A DNA stretch of 64,000 nucleotides, from NCBI GenBank assembly GCA_965231005.1, contig OZ246405.1, forward strand, positions 295,204 to 359,203, read 5' to 3'. This stretch comes from an uncultured Gammaproteobacteria bacterium. Its GTDB lineage: Bacteria; Patescibacteriota; Patescibacteriia; Magasanikbacterales; UBA922. Both the position numbers and the translations under genes were made by a program. Of this stretch, positions 10,544 to 32,024 are shown piece after piece; the first letter of the stretch is position 1; every line of letters starts with the position of its first letter. The notes beneath the pieces were generated by a model, which was not told the DNA's origin, did no database searches, and saw only the letters and a list, made by a program, of their open reading frames with translations.

Positions 10544-12565
10544 ATGAAATATGCAACGCACTATTCGTTGCCTGTCATATGTATTGTTCTTTTTTTTCTA
10601 AGCTCATCAGTTGTGTTTGCTCAAACAACAACAAGTACACAAGCCATTGAAAAAAAATATGCAGCATGTGTAAAAGAATATGAAGATGCAAAAAAGAAAC
10701 TTGAAACAAATGCAACGACTTCAACAAAAAAAAATGCTGTGAAAGAGAAAAGTCATTCTTCATCTTCAAATAATAATTCATCACAACAAGTTTTACCCAT
10801 TATCACATCAGTTGTTATCAATGAAGTGCTACCAAACCCAAAAGGAACAGACAGTGAAGATGAATTTATTGAAATAAAAAATGCCTCAGCAAAAGAAATT
10901 AATTTAGATAAATGGAAATTAGCAGATGCAACAAAAAAAAGATTTACATTAAAAAATATATCAATTGGACCGCATGAAATTATTGTTTTTAAAAGAACAG
11001 AAACAAATATTTCTTTAAACAATTCAGGAAAGGAGGATGTGCGATTATTTGATCAGCATGATCGACTTGTAGAACAAATTACCTATGAAGGAAAGGTAGA
11101 AGAAGACCAAAGTTATGCACGCGGAAAAGACAATTTATTTTTTTGGACAAAAAATATAACGCCCGGGTTTGAAAATAAAGTTGTAAACGATGTTGCAGAA
11201 AATCATTTATCTGAGAATACAACAACGAGTACAAAACATACAACCACAACAGAACAATTAAAAATTAAGGATTCAAAGAAAAGAGAAGGAAGCGCTGAGT
11301 CTTCTCAGGATCAAAAGAAAGAAGTTGATGCAGATAATACTGTATCCCAAAATTTGTCTAATAAATTTTGGTCACATATTGAAATTTCAGAATTTATTCC
11401 AAATCCAATTGGATCTGATGATTCTGAGTTTATTGAACTGTATAATCCAACTGAAACAGATATTGATATTTCTAGTATACAAATTGACGATGAAGAAGGT
11501 GGTTCCAAACCGTATACAATACCAGATAATACAATAATACAGGCAAAGAAATTTTTGGTTTTTCAAAGAGAAGATACTGGATTAGCCCTAAATAATACAG
11601 GAGATGCTGTACGCTTGCTTCTTAAAGATGGAAAGGTTCTACAGCAAGCTCGTTATGAAAAAGCAGTTGAAGGTGTGAGCTATATTAAAGATGAAGATGG
11701 GGATTGGGTTATGACAGATTTTGTTACGCCAGGGGAAGAAAATAAAATGCAAGTGGTAGAGCAAGAAGATCCTGGCACAATTGAGGAAAAAGATAAACCA
11801 GTTATAGAGACAATGGCTAGTCAGATTTCACAATTTGATGTTGGAGATAGAATTTCCATTCAAGGAGTTGTTGGTGTGTTGCCAGGAGTATATGGTTCTC
11901 AATATTTTTATATTGCAGAAACTGATTCTGCTAGCACAACATATGGTGTACAAATATATCAGTACAAGAAAGAATTTCCAGATTTGCACGTTGGCGATGC
12001 GGTTCAAATTATTGGAGAGATGTCAGAAACACAAGGAGAAGCGCGTATTAAAGTTAAAACAAAAGAAGATATTGTTTTTTTAGAAGATGGAATTTTGCTA
12101 TCTCCCGTACAAACAGAGCTTGCAAATGTTAGTGAGTCAACTGTTGGTTCTTTTGTAAAAGTGAAAGGCGAAATAACAGAATTAAAAGGTTCGTATATGT
12201 ATATTGATGATGGGACAGCAGAGCTGAGAATTTATTTTAAACGTGGAGCAAACATTAGCAAAGAAAAATTAAAGCTTGGAGATATTGTGACAGTTGTTGG
12301 ATTTGTAAATAAAACAAAACAAGGGTATCAAGTGCTCCCTCGATCACAAGATGATATTAAAAAAATAGGGGTTGCCCAATCTGCAGTTCTTGAACATAAA
12401 GATAAAGAAAAAGAAAGTCAAAAAGAAGTTGCAGAAAAATATTTAACAGCCACGGCTGGAGGTCTCACTTCACTCATTGTCGGTTTATTTGCAAAGACAA
12501 GAGGCGCCATTGCAAAGGGGATTATGATGAAGCTAAAAGATGGAATTTCGTTTGTCTTTAAGTAA
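10544..12565 (+). CDS. secreted protein with two lamin-tail domains (LTD) and a C-terminal TM anchor
   Basis: Signal peptide. LTD motifs VVINEVLPNPKGTDSEDEFIEIKN and IEISEFIPNPIGSDDSEFIELYN. Confidence 0.7.
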   Translation: MKYATHYSLPVICIVLFFLSSSVVFAQTTTSTQAIEKKYAACVKEYEDAKKKLETNATTSTKKNAVKEKSHSSSSNNNSSQQVLPIITSVVINEVLPNPKGTDSEDEFIEIKNASAKEINLDKWKLADATKKRFTLKNISIGPHEIIVFKRTETNISLNNSGKEDVRLFDQHDRLVEQITYEGKVEEDQSYARGKDNLFFWTKNITPGFENKVVNDVAENHLSENTTTSTKHTTTTEQLKIKDSKKREGSAESSQDQKKEVDADNTVSQNLSNKFWSHIEISEFIPNPIGSDDSEFIELYNPTETDIDISSIQIDDEEGGSKPYTIPDNTIIQAKKFLVFQREDTGLALNNTGDAVRLLLKDGKVLQQARYEKAVEGVSYIKDEDGDWVMTDFVTPGEENKMQVVEQEDPGTIEEKDKPVIETMASQISQFDVGDRISIQGVVGVLPGVYGSQYFYIAETDSASTTYGVQIYQYKKEFPDLHVGDAVQIIGEMSETQGEARIKVKTKEDIVFLEDGILLSPVQTELANVSESTVGSFVKVKGEITELKGSYMYIDDGTAELRIYFKRGANISKEKLKLGDIVTVVGFVNKTKQGYQVLPRSQDDIKKIGVAQSAVLEHKDKEKESQKEVAEKYLTATAGGLTSLIVGLFAKTRGAIAKGIMMKLKDGISFVFK

Positions 12566-12605
12566 TATTGACGGACGAGAATATTATTCATATAATGCAT
12601 AAGCT

Positions 12606-12920
12606 ATGACAAAACAAATAATGAAAAAATTAAAAGAACATGACAAGAGATTCGACAAGATGGATAAAAGGTTTGATTCACATGAGAAGAGACTAGACAC
12701 GTTAGGAAATTATATGTTGAAGAATACTCGTAGGATTGATGAGCTATCAGAGAAAGTTGATACGTTGTTGCAAAGAATTCCAGAAGGGCTGCATGAAATT
12801 TTAGATGCACTTGTTGGAAACGATAAAAGACATGACCAAGAATTGATTTTTGCAAACGAACACTTCAAAAGAATTGACAAAGATATTGAAAAAATAAAAC
12901 CATTAGTCGGGCTTACATAA
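12606..12920 (+). CDS. hypothetical coiled-coil protein
   Basis: Repeated KRFD/KRLD heptad-like segments. A terminator follows at 12932-12958. Confidence 0.45.
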   Translation: MTKQIMKKLKEHDKRFDKMDKRFDSHEKRLDTLGNYMLKNTRRIDELSEKVDTLLQRIPEGLHEILDALVGNDKRHDQELIFANEHFKRIDKDIEKIKPLVGLT

Positions 12921-12973
12921 ATTGTAAACAAAGGCCACTCACAATTTGAGTGGTTTTTTGGTATAATAAATAC

Positions 12974-14705: not shown

Positions 14706-15344
14706 TTAACCTCCCTTTGTTTGTTCTCTGGACGCAGCCGTCGCGACTGCTTGTGCAACTGCTGCCACGCTTCGCTGGTTTGCTGCAGTAACATTGCTTC
14801 CTTTGTAGAGGTTGGAGACATGATGGTCAAGCTCTGTTGATCCCCAGATGACAACCACGTCAGCCCAGGCAATGTCTGCCCTTGCTTGTGTTCGGTTTCT
14901 CCGCTTTGTGCCGTGCACAAGCCGCAGATTGATATCGCTTCCAACAAAACCAGCCAAGGCTTTTCGACTGCTTGGAGAGCCACCGACTACACAGACTTGG
15001 CTCCATCCAACATTGCGACAAGCTTGAATCATTTTGCGTACAGCTCGTTGGTTTGATGATCCTCCACAGATCTGGCAGAAATGCTGCTTTGCAGCGCGCG
15101 CTACAAACCGTTCTCCCTTGACCACACCTGCCTCAGTTCTGCAATCCCCTCGATCGCAGACGAGCAATACGAATTCTGCAAGAAGTTTCTTTGCCGTTTC
15201 GATTTTTTTTGTACTGATTCGTTTCTTGCTAGGTCTACTAACCCCAGCATCTTCGAGAATCAACTCAAAGATCTCCATGTCACCGGCATACCCAAGCGAC
15301 AAAAGGAGATCAGCTTTTGACACATCGGGATTTCCCTTAGTCAT
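14706..15344 (-). CDS. hypothetical protein (possibly DUF2325-like), GC-rich island gene
   Basis: AAGGAGG Shine-Dalgarno 5 nt upstream of the ATG. C-terminal VVVIWGSTELDHH. GC content is visibly higher than in the neighbours. Confidence 0.45.
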   Translation of the reverse strand: MTKGNPDVSKADLLLSLGYAGDMEIFELILEDAGVSRPSKKRISTKKIETAKKLLAEFVLLVCDRGDCRTEAGVVKGERFVARAAKQHFCQICGGSSNQRAVRKMIQACRNVGWSQVCVVGGSPSSRKALAGFVGSDINLRLVHGTKRRNRTQARADIAWADVVVIWGSTELDHHVSNLYKGSNVTAANQRSVAAVAQAVATAASREQTKGG

Positions 15345-15448
15345 GTCTTCCTCCTTATGAAAGGGTTTTGCCGAAAGAGTATTTTACGGTATTCCACACC
15401 ATTTGTCAATGGTTGGATATGAAGTTTTGCTAATTTTTTAATAAAAAA

Positions 15449-15470
15449 AAAGACCTTGCGGTCTTTTTTG
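15449..15470 (-). terminator. terminator of the tRNA operon (bidirectional hairpin)
   Basis: AGACC-ttgc-GGTCT flanked by an A-run and a T-run. Confidence 0.5.
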
Positions 15471-15474
15471 TTCG

Positions 15475-15548
15475 TCGGAGTGAAAGGACTTGAACCTTCG
15501 ACCCCTGCGTCCCAAACGCAGTGCTCTAGCCAACTGAGCTACACTCCG
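15475..15548 (-). tRNA. tRNA-Pro (UGG)
   Basis: Cloverleaf. Acceptor CGGAGTG/CACTCCG. Anticodon loop TTTGGGA. T-loop TTCAAGT. Confidence 0.85.
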
Positions 15549-15589
15549 GTATAGGCTGTTATTATTATTTTTGTTTTTATATTGGATTT

Positions 15590-15653
15590 CAGATTGTGCT
15601 CTAGCCTCAGCCAAAGGCTGATCCGCCTCTGGCGGAAACTGAGCTACACTCCG
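15590..15653 (-). pseudogene. tRNA-Pro 5'-end fragment (CGGAGTGTAGCTCAG) fused to a hairpin-rich insert
   Basis: The first 15 nt are identical to the tRNA-Pro 5' end. Hairpins CCGCC-agag-GCGG and CAGCC-tttg-GCTG follow. There is no anticodon, T-arm or 3' acceptor. Confidence 0.35.
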
Positions 15654-15689
15654 ATGTGTTTTTTCACATTGTGAAGTGTGCCAGTTTAT

Positions 15690-15775
15690 CCCAACTGTCC
15701 CGAAGCCTCGACTTTGTCGAGGGTACGGGACTCCGACTGAACGCTTTGCGTTCACGTCGGAGAGCTACACTCCGA
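15690..15775 (-). pseudogene. second tRNA-Pro 5'-end fragment (CGGAGTGTAGCTC) fused to a strongly structured insert
   Basis: Contains a 13-bp stem TCCGACGTGAACGC/GCGTTCAGTCGGA and a GTCCCG...CGGGAC helix. Confidence 0.3.
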
Positions 15776-15838
15776 TGCTTCATCAATGCTTTGCAGCGCA
15801 AGCGAGTGTGCCTGCACTTCGAAGCCTTGGCGAAGAAG

Positions 15839-15910
15839 TGCCGAGGGTGAGAATCGAACTCACGACACGAGGCTCTTCAGGCCCCTGCTCTACCACTGAG
15901 CTACCTCGGC
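15839..15910 (-). tRNA. tRNA-Phe (GAA)
   Basis: GCCGAGGTAGCTCAGTGGTAGAGC...CTGAAGA...GTTCGATTC...CCTCGGCA. Confidence 0.9.
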
Positions 15911-15951
15911 GTTATACAATAATCGTCCATCGAAAGATGGACGATGTTTGT

Positions 15952-16027
15952 TGGTGGACCGAACAGGACTCGAACCCGCCACCTCCGCAGTGCAAATGCG
16001 GCGCTCTACCAGATGAGCTATCGGCCC
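15952..16027 (-). tRNA. tRNA-Ala (UGC), CCA encoded
   Basis: GGGCCGATAGCTCA...anticodon loop TTTGCAC...GGTTCGAGTCC...TCGGTCCACCA. Confidence 0.9.
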
Positions 16028-16069
16028 GTGATTTTTATTCTTTCTTCCAAAGTAAATAAAAGCGACATA

Positions 16070-16098
16070 ATTATACCAATAGATGGAATAAATGTCAA
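16070..16098 (-). promoter_or_regulatory. consensus sigma-70 promoter driving the tRNA-Ala/Phe/Pro operon
   Basis: Minus strand reads TTGACA, then a 17-nt spacer, then TATAAT. Confidence 0.6.
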
Positions 16099-16176
16099 TG
16101 GTTTCTGTGAGTAATGAGAAAGAACAAAAAAATCCCTTTATATTCCTGTTTTGATGGATAATATATAGAGATTCTT

Positions 16177-16464
16177 TTATTTTTTTACAATTTTGTAGAA
16201 TTCTTGAAGATAAAGAAGATCCTCTTTTATGTCTTTTAAGATGCTATTCTTTTTGTTTGCTTTTTGATCGAGTAGGTCGATCACTGTTGCTAGCGTTGAA
16301 AAATAGCTGTCAGTTTCAATATGAAATGCCAGATTTTTTCTTCTGCACTCTGCTCTCTCTTCTTTGTCATGTAAAAGAAGACAATGGTCATTGTTTCCAA
16401 TAACAAAATCTTTTAGGGCAATTGGTTTATATAGTTTTGTTTGTATCATATTACATGTATTCAT
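16177..16464 (-). CDS. hypothetical protein
   Basis: ORF downstream of radC. The start is ambiguous, at 16464 or 16449. Confidence 0.35.
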   Translation of the reverse strand: MNTCNMIQTKLYKPIALKDFVIGNNDHCLLLHDKEERAECRRKNLAFHIETDSYFSTLATVIDLLDQKANKKNSILKDIKEDLLYLQEFYKIVKK

Positions 16465-17200
16465 GAGGCACGCTTGTAAATCCTTTTTTTGTAATAATAA
16501 TATGATCAAGTAGGTCAACACCAAGAATGTCTGCAGCTTGTGAAAGCTGCTGCGTTACTTCGATGTCAGCCTTGGTTGGCTTTGCACTCCCAGATGGATG
16601 ATTGTGTGCAATAATCACTGCCGCTGCTGAGTACTCAAATGCAGGTTTAAATACTTCACGTGGGTGAACAATATTTGCAGTAAGACTTCCAATAGAAATT
16701 ATTTCATCATGAATTAATTTGTATCTGCTGTTTAGATAGAGTCCACGTAATTGTTCTTTTGGCAATTCTCGCATGTCTCTTAAATAATTGTATGCTTGCT
16801 TTGCTGTGCGAATAGTAATTGCACGTCCTGGTTTTTTTTGAAAAAAACGTCTTCCAAGTTCAAAGCAGGCAACAACCTGACAAGATTTTCCGAGTGGAAT
16901 TGATAATTCTTTTTGCAGCACGGTTGGATCTGTCTGGGTACTTATATTTTTCTCACCGTATTCTTGAATAATGCGAGAAGACATAGCAAGTACTTCTTCT
17001 TTTTTTGTACCGACACTCAAAACGATTGCCATAAGTTCTTTTGTAGAGAGTGCTTGTACTCCATGTTTGATAAGACGTTCACGAGGTTTGTCTTCTTCTG
17101 CGAGGTCCCTTACTTTTAGAACATATGATTTTCCCACATTGTCGAGAATGAGATCATTGTCTCGTAACATATATATTGGTTGTATAGTTTGTGTTTTCAT
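16451..17200 (-). CDS. radC: RadC-like JAB/MPN domain protein (UPF0758)
   Basis: JAMM motif HNHPSGSAKPTKADIEVT. HhH region GVQALSTKELMAIVL. Confidence 0.85.
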   Translation of the reverse strand: MKTQTIQPIYMLRDNDLILDNVGKSYVLKVRDLAEEDKPRERLIKHGVQALSTKELMAIVLSVGTKKEEVLAMSSRIIQEYGEKNISTQTDPTVLQKELSIPLGKSCQVVACFELGRRFFQKKPGRAITIRTAKQAYNYLRDMRELPKEQLRGLYLNSRYKLIHDEIISIGSLTANIVHPREVFKPAFEYSAAAVIIAHNHPSGSAKPTKADIEVTQQLSQAADILGVDLLDHIIITKKGFTSVPHEYM

Positions 17201-23167: not shown

Positions 23168-23343
23168 GATGTTCTCCAGATGAGTGTACCGGTGTTGTTC
23201 ACTGGCACGGTTTGGGTTGATCTGTTGCCAAGCGTAGCGGAAAAAGAGGTGTATGTCAATAATGAAATAAAAAAAAACAGGCTATTCACCTGTTTTTCTT
23301 TGAGCTACACCTGGCCTAAAGGCCAGGCAAGGACTCTTTTTTG

Positions 23344-23395
23344 TGGAGCGGCAGACCGGACTTGAACCTGCCTGCCGGCAGGCAGGCCGGCGACA
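23344..23395 (-). repeat. element B copy 1: tRNA-Gly-like 3' end (T-arm plus acceptor plus CCA) fused to a perfect 20-bp palindrome
   Basis: The reverse complement reads GGTTCAAGTCCGGTCTGCCGCTCCA, which is one mismatch from the tRNA-Gly(GCC) acceptor arm. It is preceded by the palindrome CCTGCCTGCCGGCAGGCAGG at 23367-23386. Confidence 0.5.
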
Positions 23396-23405
23396 ACAAA
23401 ACAAA

Positions 23406-31812: not shown

Positions 31813-31918
31813 CGTGCCACGAGATGGCGCCCATTGGAATATTGTCGCACGTGGCCACGTAAAATGACCTTCGGTCATCACGTGGCTCACTCAAAATGGC
31901 TCGCGCCATTTTTCGTGG
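31813..31918 (+). ncRNA. conserved structured element A, copy 2
   Basis: Same architecture as 781-887. The inner hairpin is ATGACC-TTCG-GGTCAT, against GGCAC-TTCG-TGCC in copy 1, so the changes are compensatory. It directly follows a terminator at 31770-31800. Confidence 0.35.
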
Positions 31919-31950
31919 AGCGGACCTGCCTGCCGGCAGGCAGGCGACCC
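31916..31950 (-). repeat. element B copy 2: tRNA-Gly(UCC) acceptor-3'-end-plus-CCA-like fragment fused to the same 20-bp palindrome
   Basis: The reverse complement reads CCTGCCTGCCGGCAGGCAGG-TCCGCTCCA. GTCCGCT matches the 3' acceptor strand of the adjacent tRNA-Gly(UCC). The palindrome lies at 31925-31944. Confidence 0.5.
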
Positions 31951-32024
31951 TGCCTACGCTTTCAGCTCCGGCAGGTAAACTCCATCTCAGCAAGTTCAAT
32001 TCCTTGCCCGTCAGGCCCAAACTA

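Follow-up and report, generated by a model that had tools for sequence, protein, structure and literature searches.

How does a bacterial tRNA operon come to hold three copies of the 5' end of one and the same tRNA gene, only one of which continues into a complete tRNA? The question is raised by a stretch of 64,000 nucleotides (nt) from contig OZ246405.1 (assembly GCA_965231005.1, positions 295,204 to 359,203 of the forward strand), called the window below, from a genome that belongs to the Patescibacteriota. Between the tRNA-Phe and tRNA-Pro genes of an operon on its minus strand lie two elements, A and B, that begin as tRNA-Pro and are then interrupted by GC-rich hairpins. Based on the sequence of the window and of related loci, we believe that the two elements are probably relics, now without an open reading frame (ORF), of two insertions made by two different lineages of a tRNA-embedded GIY-YIG nuclease cassette that is common in the Candidate Phyla Radiation (CPR; Patescibacteria).

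Two hairpin-split copies of the tRNA-Pro 5' end

The initial annotation described an operon running from a promoter through tRNA-Ala, tRNA-Phe and two elements to tRNA-Pro, and ARAGORN, Rfam and the match of the promoter to consensus (Table 1) agree with this layout. The 13-mer CGGAGTGTAGCTC, which is the 5' end of tRNA-Pro, is found exactly three times in the window, always on the minus strand, at 15536-15548, 15641-15653 and 15762-15774; the annotation had all three copies, with the third placed one nucleotide off, at 15763. When up to two mismatches are allowed, there are 5 matches in 64 kb, where 0.38 are expected and 0 of 100 shuffled sequences reach 5. The copies at the head of the two elements are exact, with nt 1-13 (element B) at -226 and nt 1-17 (element A) at -105 nt from the intact tRNA-Pro.

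Element A (15653-15549) consists of tRNA-Pro nt 1-17, a 30-nt module of two hairpins, tRNA-Pro nt 18-28 and 47 AT-rich nt, and element B (15774-15654) of tRNA-Pro nt 1-13, two longer hairpins, nt 14-19 and a short tail. The GC-rich hairpins of both elements are as the annotation described them, and it was also right that 5' copies of tRNA-Pro carry structured inserts, but these are not simple fusions: each is a copy interrupted in the D-arm, after which the tRNA sequence resumes.

The spacer between tRNA-Phe and tRNA-Pro is 290 nt long, with a G+C content of 49% compared to 39% in the genome. Folding it, as the annotation had proposed, gave -123.8 kcal/mol, far more stable than shuffled sequences (-75.8 +/- 5.3 kcal/mol, z = -9.15). 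Both elements lie within the predicted operon transcript, and no internal terminator was found from promoter to terminator (16098-15446 on the minus strand). Neither element is called as a tRNA by ARAGORN or the Rfam tRNA model, and neither has a 3' half. The initial annotation had also thought of tRNA-derived small RNAs processed from the polycistron by RNase P; because the 3' acceptor strand is missing, the elements are not usual RNase P substrates. We ruled out a split or intron-containing tRNA, as there is no matching acceptor strand elsewhere to go with the missing 3' half. A cloverleaf-like closure of element B, in which CACACTTC pairs with the stub in the predicted fold, was also set aside, the pairing stretch not being conserved in the related locus L084.

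Occupied and empty sites in relatives

We scanned metagenomes for two copies of the 13-mer 85-115 nt apart and obtained 13 loci (loci are given here by L-number). The same operon, with tRNA-Ala, tRNA-Phe, an intervening region and tRNA-Pro, is present beside the same Na+/H+ exchanger (59-63% identical) in L083, L089 and L092. In L083 and L089, element A is found at a matching offset, -102 nt compared to -105 in the window, and the total unit length is likewise 102 compared to 105 nt; the sequence has diverged in the tail but is conserved in the hairpin stems and in the parts derived from the tRNA. A unit like element B is found in L084/L110, where CGGAGTGTAGCTC is followed by a CCGAC...GTCGG hairpin, a second hairpin and AGTTGGGAYAA. 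In the tail of this counterpart in L084, 14 nt (CAAAGTAAGCGCAA) match the N-terminal codons of the GIY-YIG ORF of L089. In L108, a GIY-YIG ORF sits exactly between tRNA-Phe and tRNA-Pro.

Two other loci, L116 and L117, are empty sites, with a gap of only 4 nt between tRNA-Phe and tRNA-Pro. Both are closer to the window than L083, L089 and L092 are, their exchangers being 72% (L116) and 70% (L117) identical to that of the window, and the tRNA-Pro of L116 is identical to that of the window. The region is therefore an insertion polymorphism and not a fixed part of the operon. The comparison with related tRNA-Pro loci, which the initial annotation had suggested, thus gave both occupied (L083, L089, L092, L108) and empty (L116, L117) alleles.

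A GIY-YIG cassette embedded in tRNA operons

From the related loci we defined a tRNA-embedded GIY-YIG cassette, which we found in intact form in eight related or analogous loci with seven tRNA identities. Its order is promoter, a stub of 10-22 nt from the 5' part of the tRNA (the spare copy runs from nt 1 to about nt 10-36), a GC palindrome in the D-arm, a few nt of local tRNA sequence, the ORF, and the intact tRNA. The ORF encodes 78-104 amino acids (aa), comprising the GIY-YIG catalytic domain only, and the intact tRNA begins 0-3 nt after the stop codon. L092 illustrates the fit: a stub of tRNA-Phe (nt 1-20), a 48-nt GC palindrome, GAGCA, a Shine-Dalgarno sequence and a 79-aa ORF are followed by the intact tRNA-Phe directly after the stop codon. 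Farther along the same operon, the same palindrome splits a stub of tRNA-Pro, and that unit has no ORF. Other cassettes are at tRNA-Ala (L084/L110), tRNA-Thr (L100, L096), tRNA-Ile (L101) and tRNA-Asn (L102-L105), and in L281 the cassette is at a tRNA that ARAGORN does not call and that has a group-I-intron-like sequence after the anticodon loop. The interruption of the D-arm seen in the window is shared by L092, L100, L101, L102 and L281, and L096 has two tandem units of stub plus hairpin, as the window does. In seven independent look-ups of the proteins, all seven (7/7) lay beside a tRNA: Thr in L096 and L100, Ile in L101, Asn in L102-L105, Pro in L106 and in L107-L109, and Ala in L110-L114, which match L084.

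A mirror form is found at tRNA-Pro (L089/L106, L107-L109). Here the ATG of the ORF follows the intact tRNA-Pro by 1 nt, and the ORF is followed by a hairpin-interrupted copy of tRNA-Pro and a terminator. This copy starts at nt 8 in L107-L109 (nt 8-75 in L108) and at nt 14 in L089/L106, and its D-loop holds the two-hairpin module of element A. In L108, the stop codon of the second ORF, the one after tRNA-Pro, lies within the two-hairpin module of the nt 8-75 copy.

The cassette ORFs belong to GIY-YIG by Pfam (PF01541, E about 1e-15) and by our own hidden Markov model (HMM), with the single Pfam domain covering most of the protein (residues 1-70 of 79). A profile search returned 1,848 homologues at E <= 1e-5, and where a source was named, it was almost entirely CPR metagenome-assembled genomes. 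Members of a 78-aa subfamily are 64-72% identical to one another and always occur with a CCCGCCCGC-type palindrome, across cassettes at tRNA-Phe, tRNA-Thr, tRNA-Ile and tRNA-Asn, so the palindrome family goes with the nuclease subfamily. The same position in the spare tRNA copy can be filled by at least three palindrome families.

The elements of the window agree with the cassette in that part of the tRNA 5' end is repeated ahead of the intact gene, that this copy has a GC-rich palindromic insert in its D-arm followed by more tRNA sequence, and that occupied and empty alleles exist. Since no GIY-YIG ORF separates the spare copy from the intact tRNA, we class them as relics and not as live members. 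The cassette ORF, which has no obvious promoter of its own, would be transcribed from the promoter of the tRNA operon, and the ends of its mRNA would be cut out by tRNA processing through RNase P and RNase Z. Insertion would duplicate part of the target tRNA, so that one functional copy survives. The palindromic module presumably belongs with the nuclease subfamily and may mark or protect the spare copy, or it may be the DNA substrate of the nuclease itself. In this genome both ORFs would later have been deleted, leaving the tRNA-Pro stub and its hairpins twice, still co-transcribed between tRNA-Phe and tRNA-Pro, where they may now be inert passengers.

The initial annotation had considered scars of mobile-element events at tRNA-Pro, and this general idea appears to be right, with a different agent from the integrase it named. 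In favor of integrases, elements classically integrate at tRNA genes and leave behind partial copies of the tRNA (PMC9897764), which would make the repeats remnants of attachment (att) sites. Against this, the repeats are 5' and not 3' pieces, they lie upstream of the tRNA about 105-121 nt apart, the copies are interrupted inside the D-arm, and there is no island or integrase nearby; at the same position, relatives have a small GIY-YIG ORF and neither an integrase nor an island. We reject integration or excision scars as very improbable.

Palindromic modules outside the cassette

The palindromic modules have a distribution of their own. At the same D-loop site in L083, the 30-nt module of element A is inverted: its reverse complement matches at 30/30 positions and the direct orientation at 24/30, and the tRNA sequence on either side has the same orientation in both. 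The long palindrome is also turned around in L102 when compared with L101 and L092. A 3' tRNA-Pro fragment downstream of the gene in L083 and L089 has its T-loop (nt 56/57) split by the two-hairpin module as well. Scanning viral contigs for the two-hairpin pattern gave 11 loci (L119-L129), mostly AT-rich, in tight intergenic gaps and in both orientations; at L125 the module is identical to that of the window (30/30). None of these 11 loci has a tRNA within 1.5 kb or a GIY-YIG ORF. In all, there are 17 distinct copies of the module in both orientations, 10 of them viral and one in the window. The stems are almost invariant and the loops vary, and some double changes preserve the pairing: TCAGCC/GGCTGA becomes CCAGCC/GGCTGG in three contexts, and CCGCC/GGCGG becomes CCGTC/GACGG.

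The mobile hairpin elements suggested by the initial annotation thus fit the inserts, given the inverted module of L083 and the viral loci without a tRNA.

A second module, the perfect 20-bp palindrome CCTGCCTGCCGGCAGGCAGG, is present twice in the window, each time downstream of a tRNA-Gly gene and fused to sequence resembling a tRNA 3' end. One copy (23367-23386, minus strand) is about 55 nt after tRNA-Gly(GCC), past the terminator of that gene, and the other (31925-31944, minus strand) is about 120 nt downstream of tRNA-Gly(UCC). We also noted the surroundings of these copies. Within 23290-23400 (minus strand), the first palindrome is fused to the T-loop-like AGGTTCAAGTCC and the acceptor-3'-like CTGCCGCTCCA, followed by GAGTCCTT, a CCTGGCC-TTTA-GGCCAGG hairpin, TGTAGCTCA (equal to tRNA-Pro nt 6-14) and a second terminator, and the whole looks like further hairpin-split tRNA scraps. 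Within 31890-31990 (minus strand), the second is flanked by GGGTCG on one side and TCCGCTCCA on the other, the latter resembling a tRNA-Gly 3' acceptor strand with CCA, and a terminator of its own follows; this layout matches the 3' relics of L083 and L089.

In viral contigs, CCTGCCTGCCGGCAGGCAGG was found at 35 loci (L250-L284) ranging in G+C from 0.38 to 0.68, sometimes with several copies per contig. One of these, L281, has it as the D-loop palindrome of a complete GIY-YIG cassette. Some of the viral loci are flanked by short direct repeats or iteron-like repeats. A tRNA-Met on a phage contig (L274:2239-2330) carries the palindrome in its variable loop and is still called as a tRNA by ARAGORN, and the same tRNA-Met with the palindrome is found at L251:8570-8660 with a truncated T-arm. 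No clear target duplications or terminal repeats were found around the palindromic modules, and a search of viral contigs by protein pattern found no GIY-YIG relatives. A further scan of viral contigs with the 15-mer CCCGCCCGCAACGCC gave at least 120 loci and was too unspecific for use.

Some related loci have tRNA genes disrupted in other ways. In three pseudo-tRNAs, namely L117:5376-5455 (Ala), L108:1117-1190 (Phe) and L084:5322-5240 on the minus strand (Ala), a hairpin, TCCCG...CGGGA or TCCGATG...CATCGGA, stands in place of the anticodon arm, and the outer stem of hairpin B2 in the window (GTCCCG...CGGGAC) is the same as in these hairpins. In L084 (4540-4850, minus strand), a structured, group-I-intron-like sequence of about 250 nt breaks tRNA-Phe(GAA) 3' of the anticodon and is followed by a putative LAGLIDADG-type endonuclease ORF, and the tRNA 3' of the GIY-YIG ORF in L281 (822-1000) seems to be interrupted similarly. 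It seems that selfish elements of several kinds accumulate in the tRNA operons of these bacteria.

Relic, independent palindrome or functional RNA

Several observations weigh against reading the elements as cassette relics. A six-frame hmmsearch of the window found no GIY-YIG ORF, and local alignment of the element tails to nine GIY-YIG ORFs, compared with shuffled sequences, found no ORF remnant (p = 0.6 for element A, p = 0.75 for element B); what ties the elements to the cassette is therefore homology of architecture, and not a sequence in this genome. In addition, palindromic modules are found where there is no GIY-YIG gene, in 11/11 of the viral loci with two hairpins and 34/35 of those with the 20-bp palindrome, and so could be independent elements. 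Module and ORF are separated by sequence of the local tRNA and thus do not travel together as a single unbroken unit. Finally, the good preservation of stubs and hairpins beside diverged spacers could reflect selection for an RNA function, which would make the elements something other than mere relics.

The main rival starts from modules that would be independent of the nuclease. Widespread mini-palindromes, similar to repetitive extragenic palindromes (REP) or miniature inverted-repeat transposable elements (MITE), would have struck dead tandem copies of tRNA-Pro made by slippage or unequal crossing-over, with no role for a GIY-YIG nuclease at this locus. Besides the many viral contigs in which the 30-nt module and CCTGCCTGCCGGCAGGCAGG occur with neither tRNA nor GIY-YIG ORF, the presence of the module in both orientations and the missing ORF remnant, it can draw on true tandem duplicates of tRNA-Pro, which do exist (L090, L093). 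It does not account so well for the palindrome in the D-arm of the spare copy in every intact cassette examined, for the way in which palindrome family follows nuclease subfamily across different tRNAs, for the two-hairpin module directly beside a GIY-YIG ORF at tRNA-Pro in L108 and L089, or for the ORF codons retained by the homologue of element B in L084. On balance, we regard independent mini-palindromes as unlikely.

Somewhat less likely again is that stubs and hairpins have acquired a role as a leader or small RNA, which might guide or pace the processing of tRNA-Pro or pair with its 3' acceptor strand. This would suit a region that is within the predicted transcript and has an extreme folding z-score, and in which unit length is conserved and stub and stems are kept, with double changes that maintain pairing, as the spacers diverge. 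On the other hand, the closer relatives lack the whole region, L116 even with an identical tRNA-Pro, the module is found in either orientation, and the symmetry of a palindrome can be maintained by template switching in the absence of selection; in addition, no Rfam family matches and the stubs have no 3' acceptor strand. Cassette relics are the probable, and best supported, origin of both elements.

The operon and its neighborhood

The features of the operon are collected in Table 1. At the gathering score, a scan with Rfam of the window and seven related loci gave tRNAs alone. An s2m-like match on the plus strand at 15695-15733 was discarded as chance level (20.4 bits compared to a cut-off of 50; E = 0.22 per 1.5 kb).

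Table 1. Positions within the window of the tRNA operon, its two elements and their parts, in order of transcription.
Feature	Position	Strand	Basis or remark
Operon promoter	16070-16098	-	TTGACA, 17 nt, TG-extended TATAAT; 12/12 consensus match
tRNA-Ala(UGC), encoded CCA	15952-16027	-	ARAGORN; Rfam tRNA 62 bits
tRNA-Phe(GAA)	15838-15910	-	ARAGORN; Rfam 70.5 bits
GC-rich hairpin spacer of 63 nt, directly 3' of tRNA-Phe	15775-15837	-	folds at -25.6 kcal/mol
Element B, copy of tRNA-Pro nt 1-13	15762-15774	-	exact 13-mer
Element B, insert	15698-15761	-	fold; hairpins B1 and B2
Element B, hairpin B1, CTCCGAC.TGAACGC-AAA-GCGTTCAGTCGGAG	stem extends into 15762	-	fold
Element B, hairpin B2, TCCCG...CTCGAC-AAA-GTCGAG...CGGGA	15730-15698	-	fold
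Element B, tRNA-Pro nt 14-19 (AGTTGG) after the insert	15691-15696	-	sequence reading; AGTTGGGAYAA motif common to L084
Element B, tail, where relatives have an ORF or ORF remnant	15654-15690	-	position
Element A, copy of tRNA-Pro nt 1-17, CGGAGTGTAGCTCAGTT	15637-15653	-	exact 17-mer
Element A, insert of 30 nt between tRNA nt 17/18, TCCGCC-AGA-GGCGGA TCAGCC-TTT-GGCTGA, two 6-bp hairpins	15607-15636	-	sole adjacent GC-hairpin pair in 64 kb
Element A, tRNA-Pro nt 18-28 after the module, GGCTAGAGCAC	15596-15606	-	exact 11-mer
Element A, tail, 47 AT-rich nt ending at the intact tRNA	15549-15595	-	sequence diverged, total unit length kept
Intact tRNA-Pro(UGG)	15474-15548	-	ARAGORN; Rfam 67.4 bits; identical to tRNA-Pro of the empty site L116
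Operon terminator	15446-15469	-	stem-loop, then T-run

The 63-nt spacer that follows tRNA-Phe is possibly a third relic. Eleven nt of it (CAAAGCATTGA) are identical to codons in L108, in the GIY-YIG ORF 3' of tRNA-Phe, a weak match with p about 0.017, uncorrected for nine tests. We also noted that 25/28 nt (89%; CTTCGCCAAGGCTTCGAAGTGCAGGCAC) of this spacer match L031:5663-5690, directly after tRNA-Ala(GGC) in an unrelated CPR locus (E = 0.008); the 28 nt may be another recurrent tRNA-adjacent module.

The ORFs near the operon encode a 212-aa protein of unknown function, RadC, the Na+/H+ exchanger and a glutamine amidotransferase. By its neighboring proteins, the window belongs to CPR/Patescibacteria and is close to Magasanikbacteria. 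All compared relatives (L083, L089, L092, L116, L117) have the Ala-Phe-Pro operon after the exchanger, with both on one strand; in the window (14706-17200), the operon, the 212-aa ORF and RadC are inverted as a group between the exchanger and the glutamine amidotransferase gene. A synteny scan of genome contigs based on the upstream RadC gene gave the phylum but found the tRNA operon beside RadC in 0/80 of the loci returned, and the exact protein of the 212-aa gene downstream was matched only by short contigs, which break off within tRNA-Pro. The closest relative by the exchanger (79% identical), on the contig of P0122, has a 97-aa GIY-YIG gene between an LTD/OB-fold protein and the exchanger. 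At the counterpart of that position, the window (12565-12950) has a 104-aa ORF with weak coiled-coil-type Pfam matches and no GIY-YIG match.

Implications

Fragments of tRNA genes in prokaryotes are normally ascribed to integrases or to spacers of clustered regularly interspaced short palindromic repeats (CRISPR). The present locus suggests a third source, namely tiny nuclease cassettes within tRNA operons, which apparently borrow the operon promoter together with the processing of the tRNAs and, through partial duplication of the tRNA, leave the host viable. If true, this would account for part of the unusual tRNA loci and pseudo-tRNAs of CPR genomes, and annotators should treat hairpin-split tRNA stubs with caution. 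A large, uncharacterized family of stand-alone GIY-YIG proteins gains a testable role and a candidate DNA substrate, and the short palindromes common to CPR genomes and viral contigs are brought to attention. The feature in the window itself is most likely the relic of an endonuclease-type selfish cassette, and its interest is mainly in the cassette family that it exposes.

A broader proposal is possible, which we hold tentatively. Single-domain GIY-YIG nucleases in tRNA operons and their cognate GC palindromes might together form an undescribed class of mobile elements targeting tRNA genes in CPR bacteria and phages, somewhat like REP and the REP-associated tyrosine transposases (RAYT). The nuclease, probably a dimer, would act on its palindrome, and the conserved D-arm flanks would supply homology for spread between genomes and between tRNA genes. 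Each event would leave a hairpin-split tRNA stub, and the stubs without an ORF in the window would be landing sites or non-autonomous copies.

Comparison with known systems

We looked for accounts of GIY-YIG genes with tRNAs in CPR, of UPF0213/YhbQ and of the palindrome sequences in open-access papers and preprints, and found no description of the cassette there. Among characterized systems, free-standing GIY-YIG homing endonucleases of the T4 SegB type sit in tRNA clusters (PMC2330249, PMC13096335). They resemble the cassette in having a GIY-YIG gene among tRNA genes, in their presence/absence polymorphism between relatives and in their link to duplication or amplification of tRNA regions. 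In contrast, proteins of the SegB type have a C-terminal DNA-binding domain, while the cassette proteins, of 78-104 aa and with a predicted nuclease role, have the catalytic domain only, and their ORFs lie within 0-3 nt of a tRNA, together with a partial tRNA copy and a palindromic module.

The closest solved structure, and the sole match in PDB, is the UPF0213 protein BH0048 (PDB 1ZG2; E = 0.002). The UPF0213/YhbQ proteins are similar in size and are likewise stand-alone proteins with a single GIY-YIG domain; in an alignment of three sequences, the catalytic residues Y, Y, R, H and E are invariant. However, the similarity is distant, and the literature we searched gave no link of that family to tRNA genes or palindromes.

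Fragments left at att sites (PMC9897764) are similar in that a partial tRNA copy lies by an intact gene and derives from a mobile element that spares one working copy. Those fragments are made by integrases, are usually the 3' part of the tRNA and go with islands on the kilobase scale, whereas here a 5' part, or a hairpin-interrupted 3' part, bounds an ORF of about 240-320 nt or nothing at all.

REP/RAYT systems and MITEs likewise have short GC-rich palindromes in many copies and both orientations, which may also adjoin a small nuclease gene. They differ in that no HUH/Y1 transposase turned up here, though only the GIY-YIG HMM was searched against these loci, and in that the two-hairpin module is of low copy (one per 64 kb) and the modules lie inside tRNA-derived sequence. 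We put forward a partnership between palindrome and GIY-YIG nuclease as a hypothesis only.

The rRNA genes of CPR bacteria can contain insertion sequences that are not introns and that carry GIY-YIG ORFs (PMC11270868): the bacterial group is the same, and the GIY-YIG ORFs lie inside stable-RNA genes with no intron fold. Those insertions break up the rRNA and are presumably excised from its transcript, whereas in the cassette the tRNA is restored by duplication; tRNAs were outside the scope of that paper. None of the systems compared here combines, as the cassette does, a nuclease reduced to its catalytic domain, an ORF that fits between tRNAs to the nucleotide, and a partial duplicate of the tRNA with a palindrome in its D-arm.

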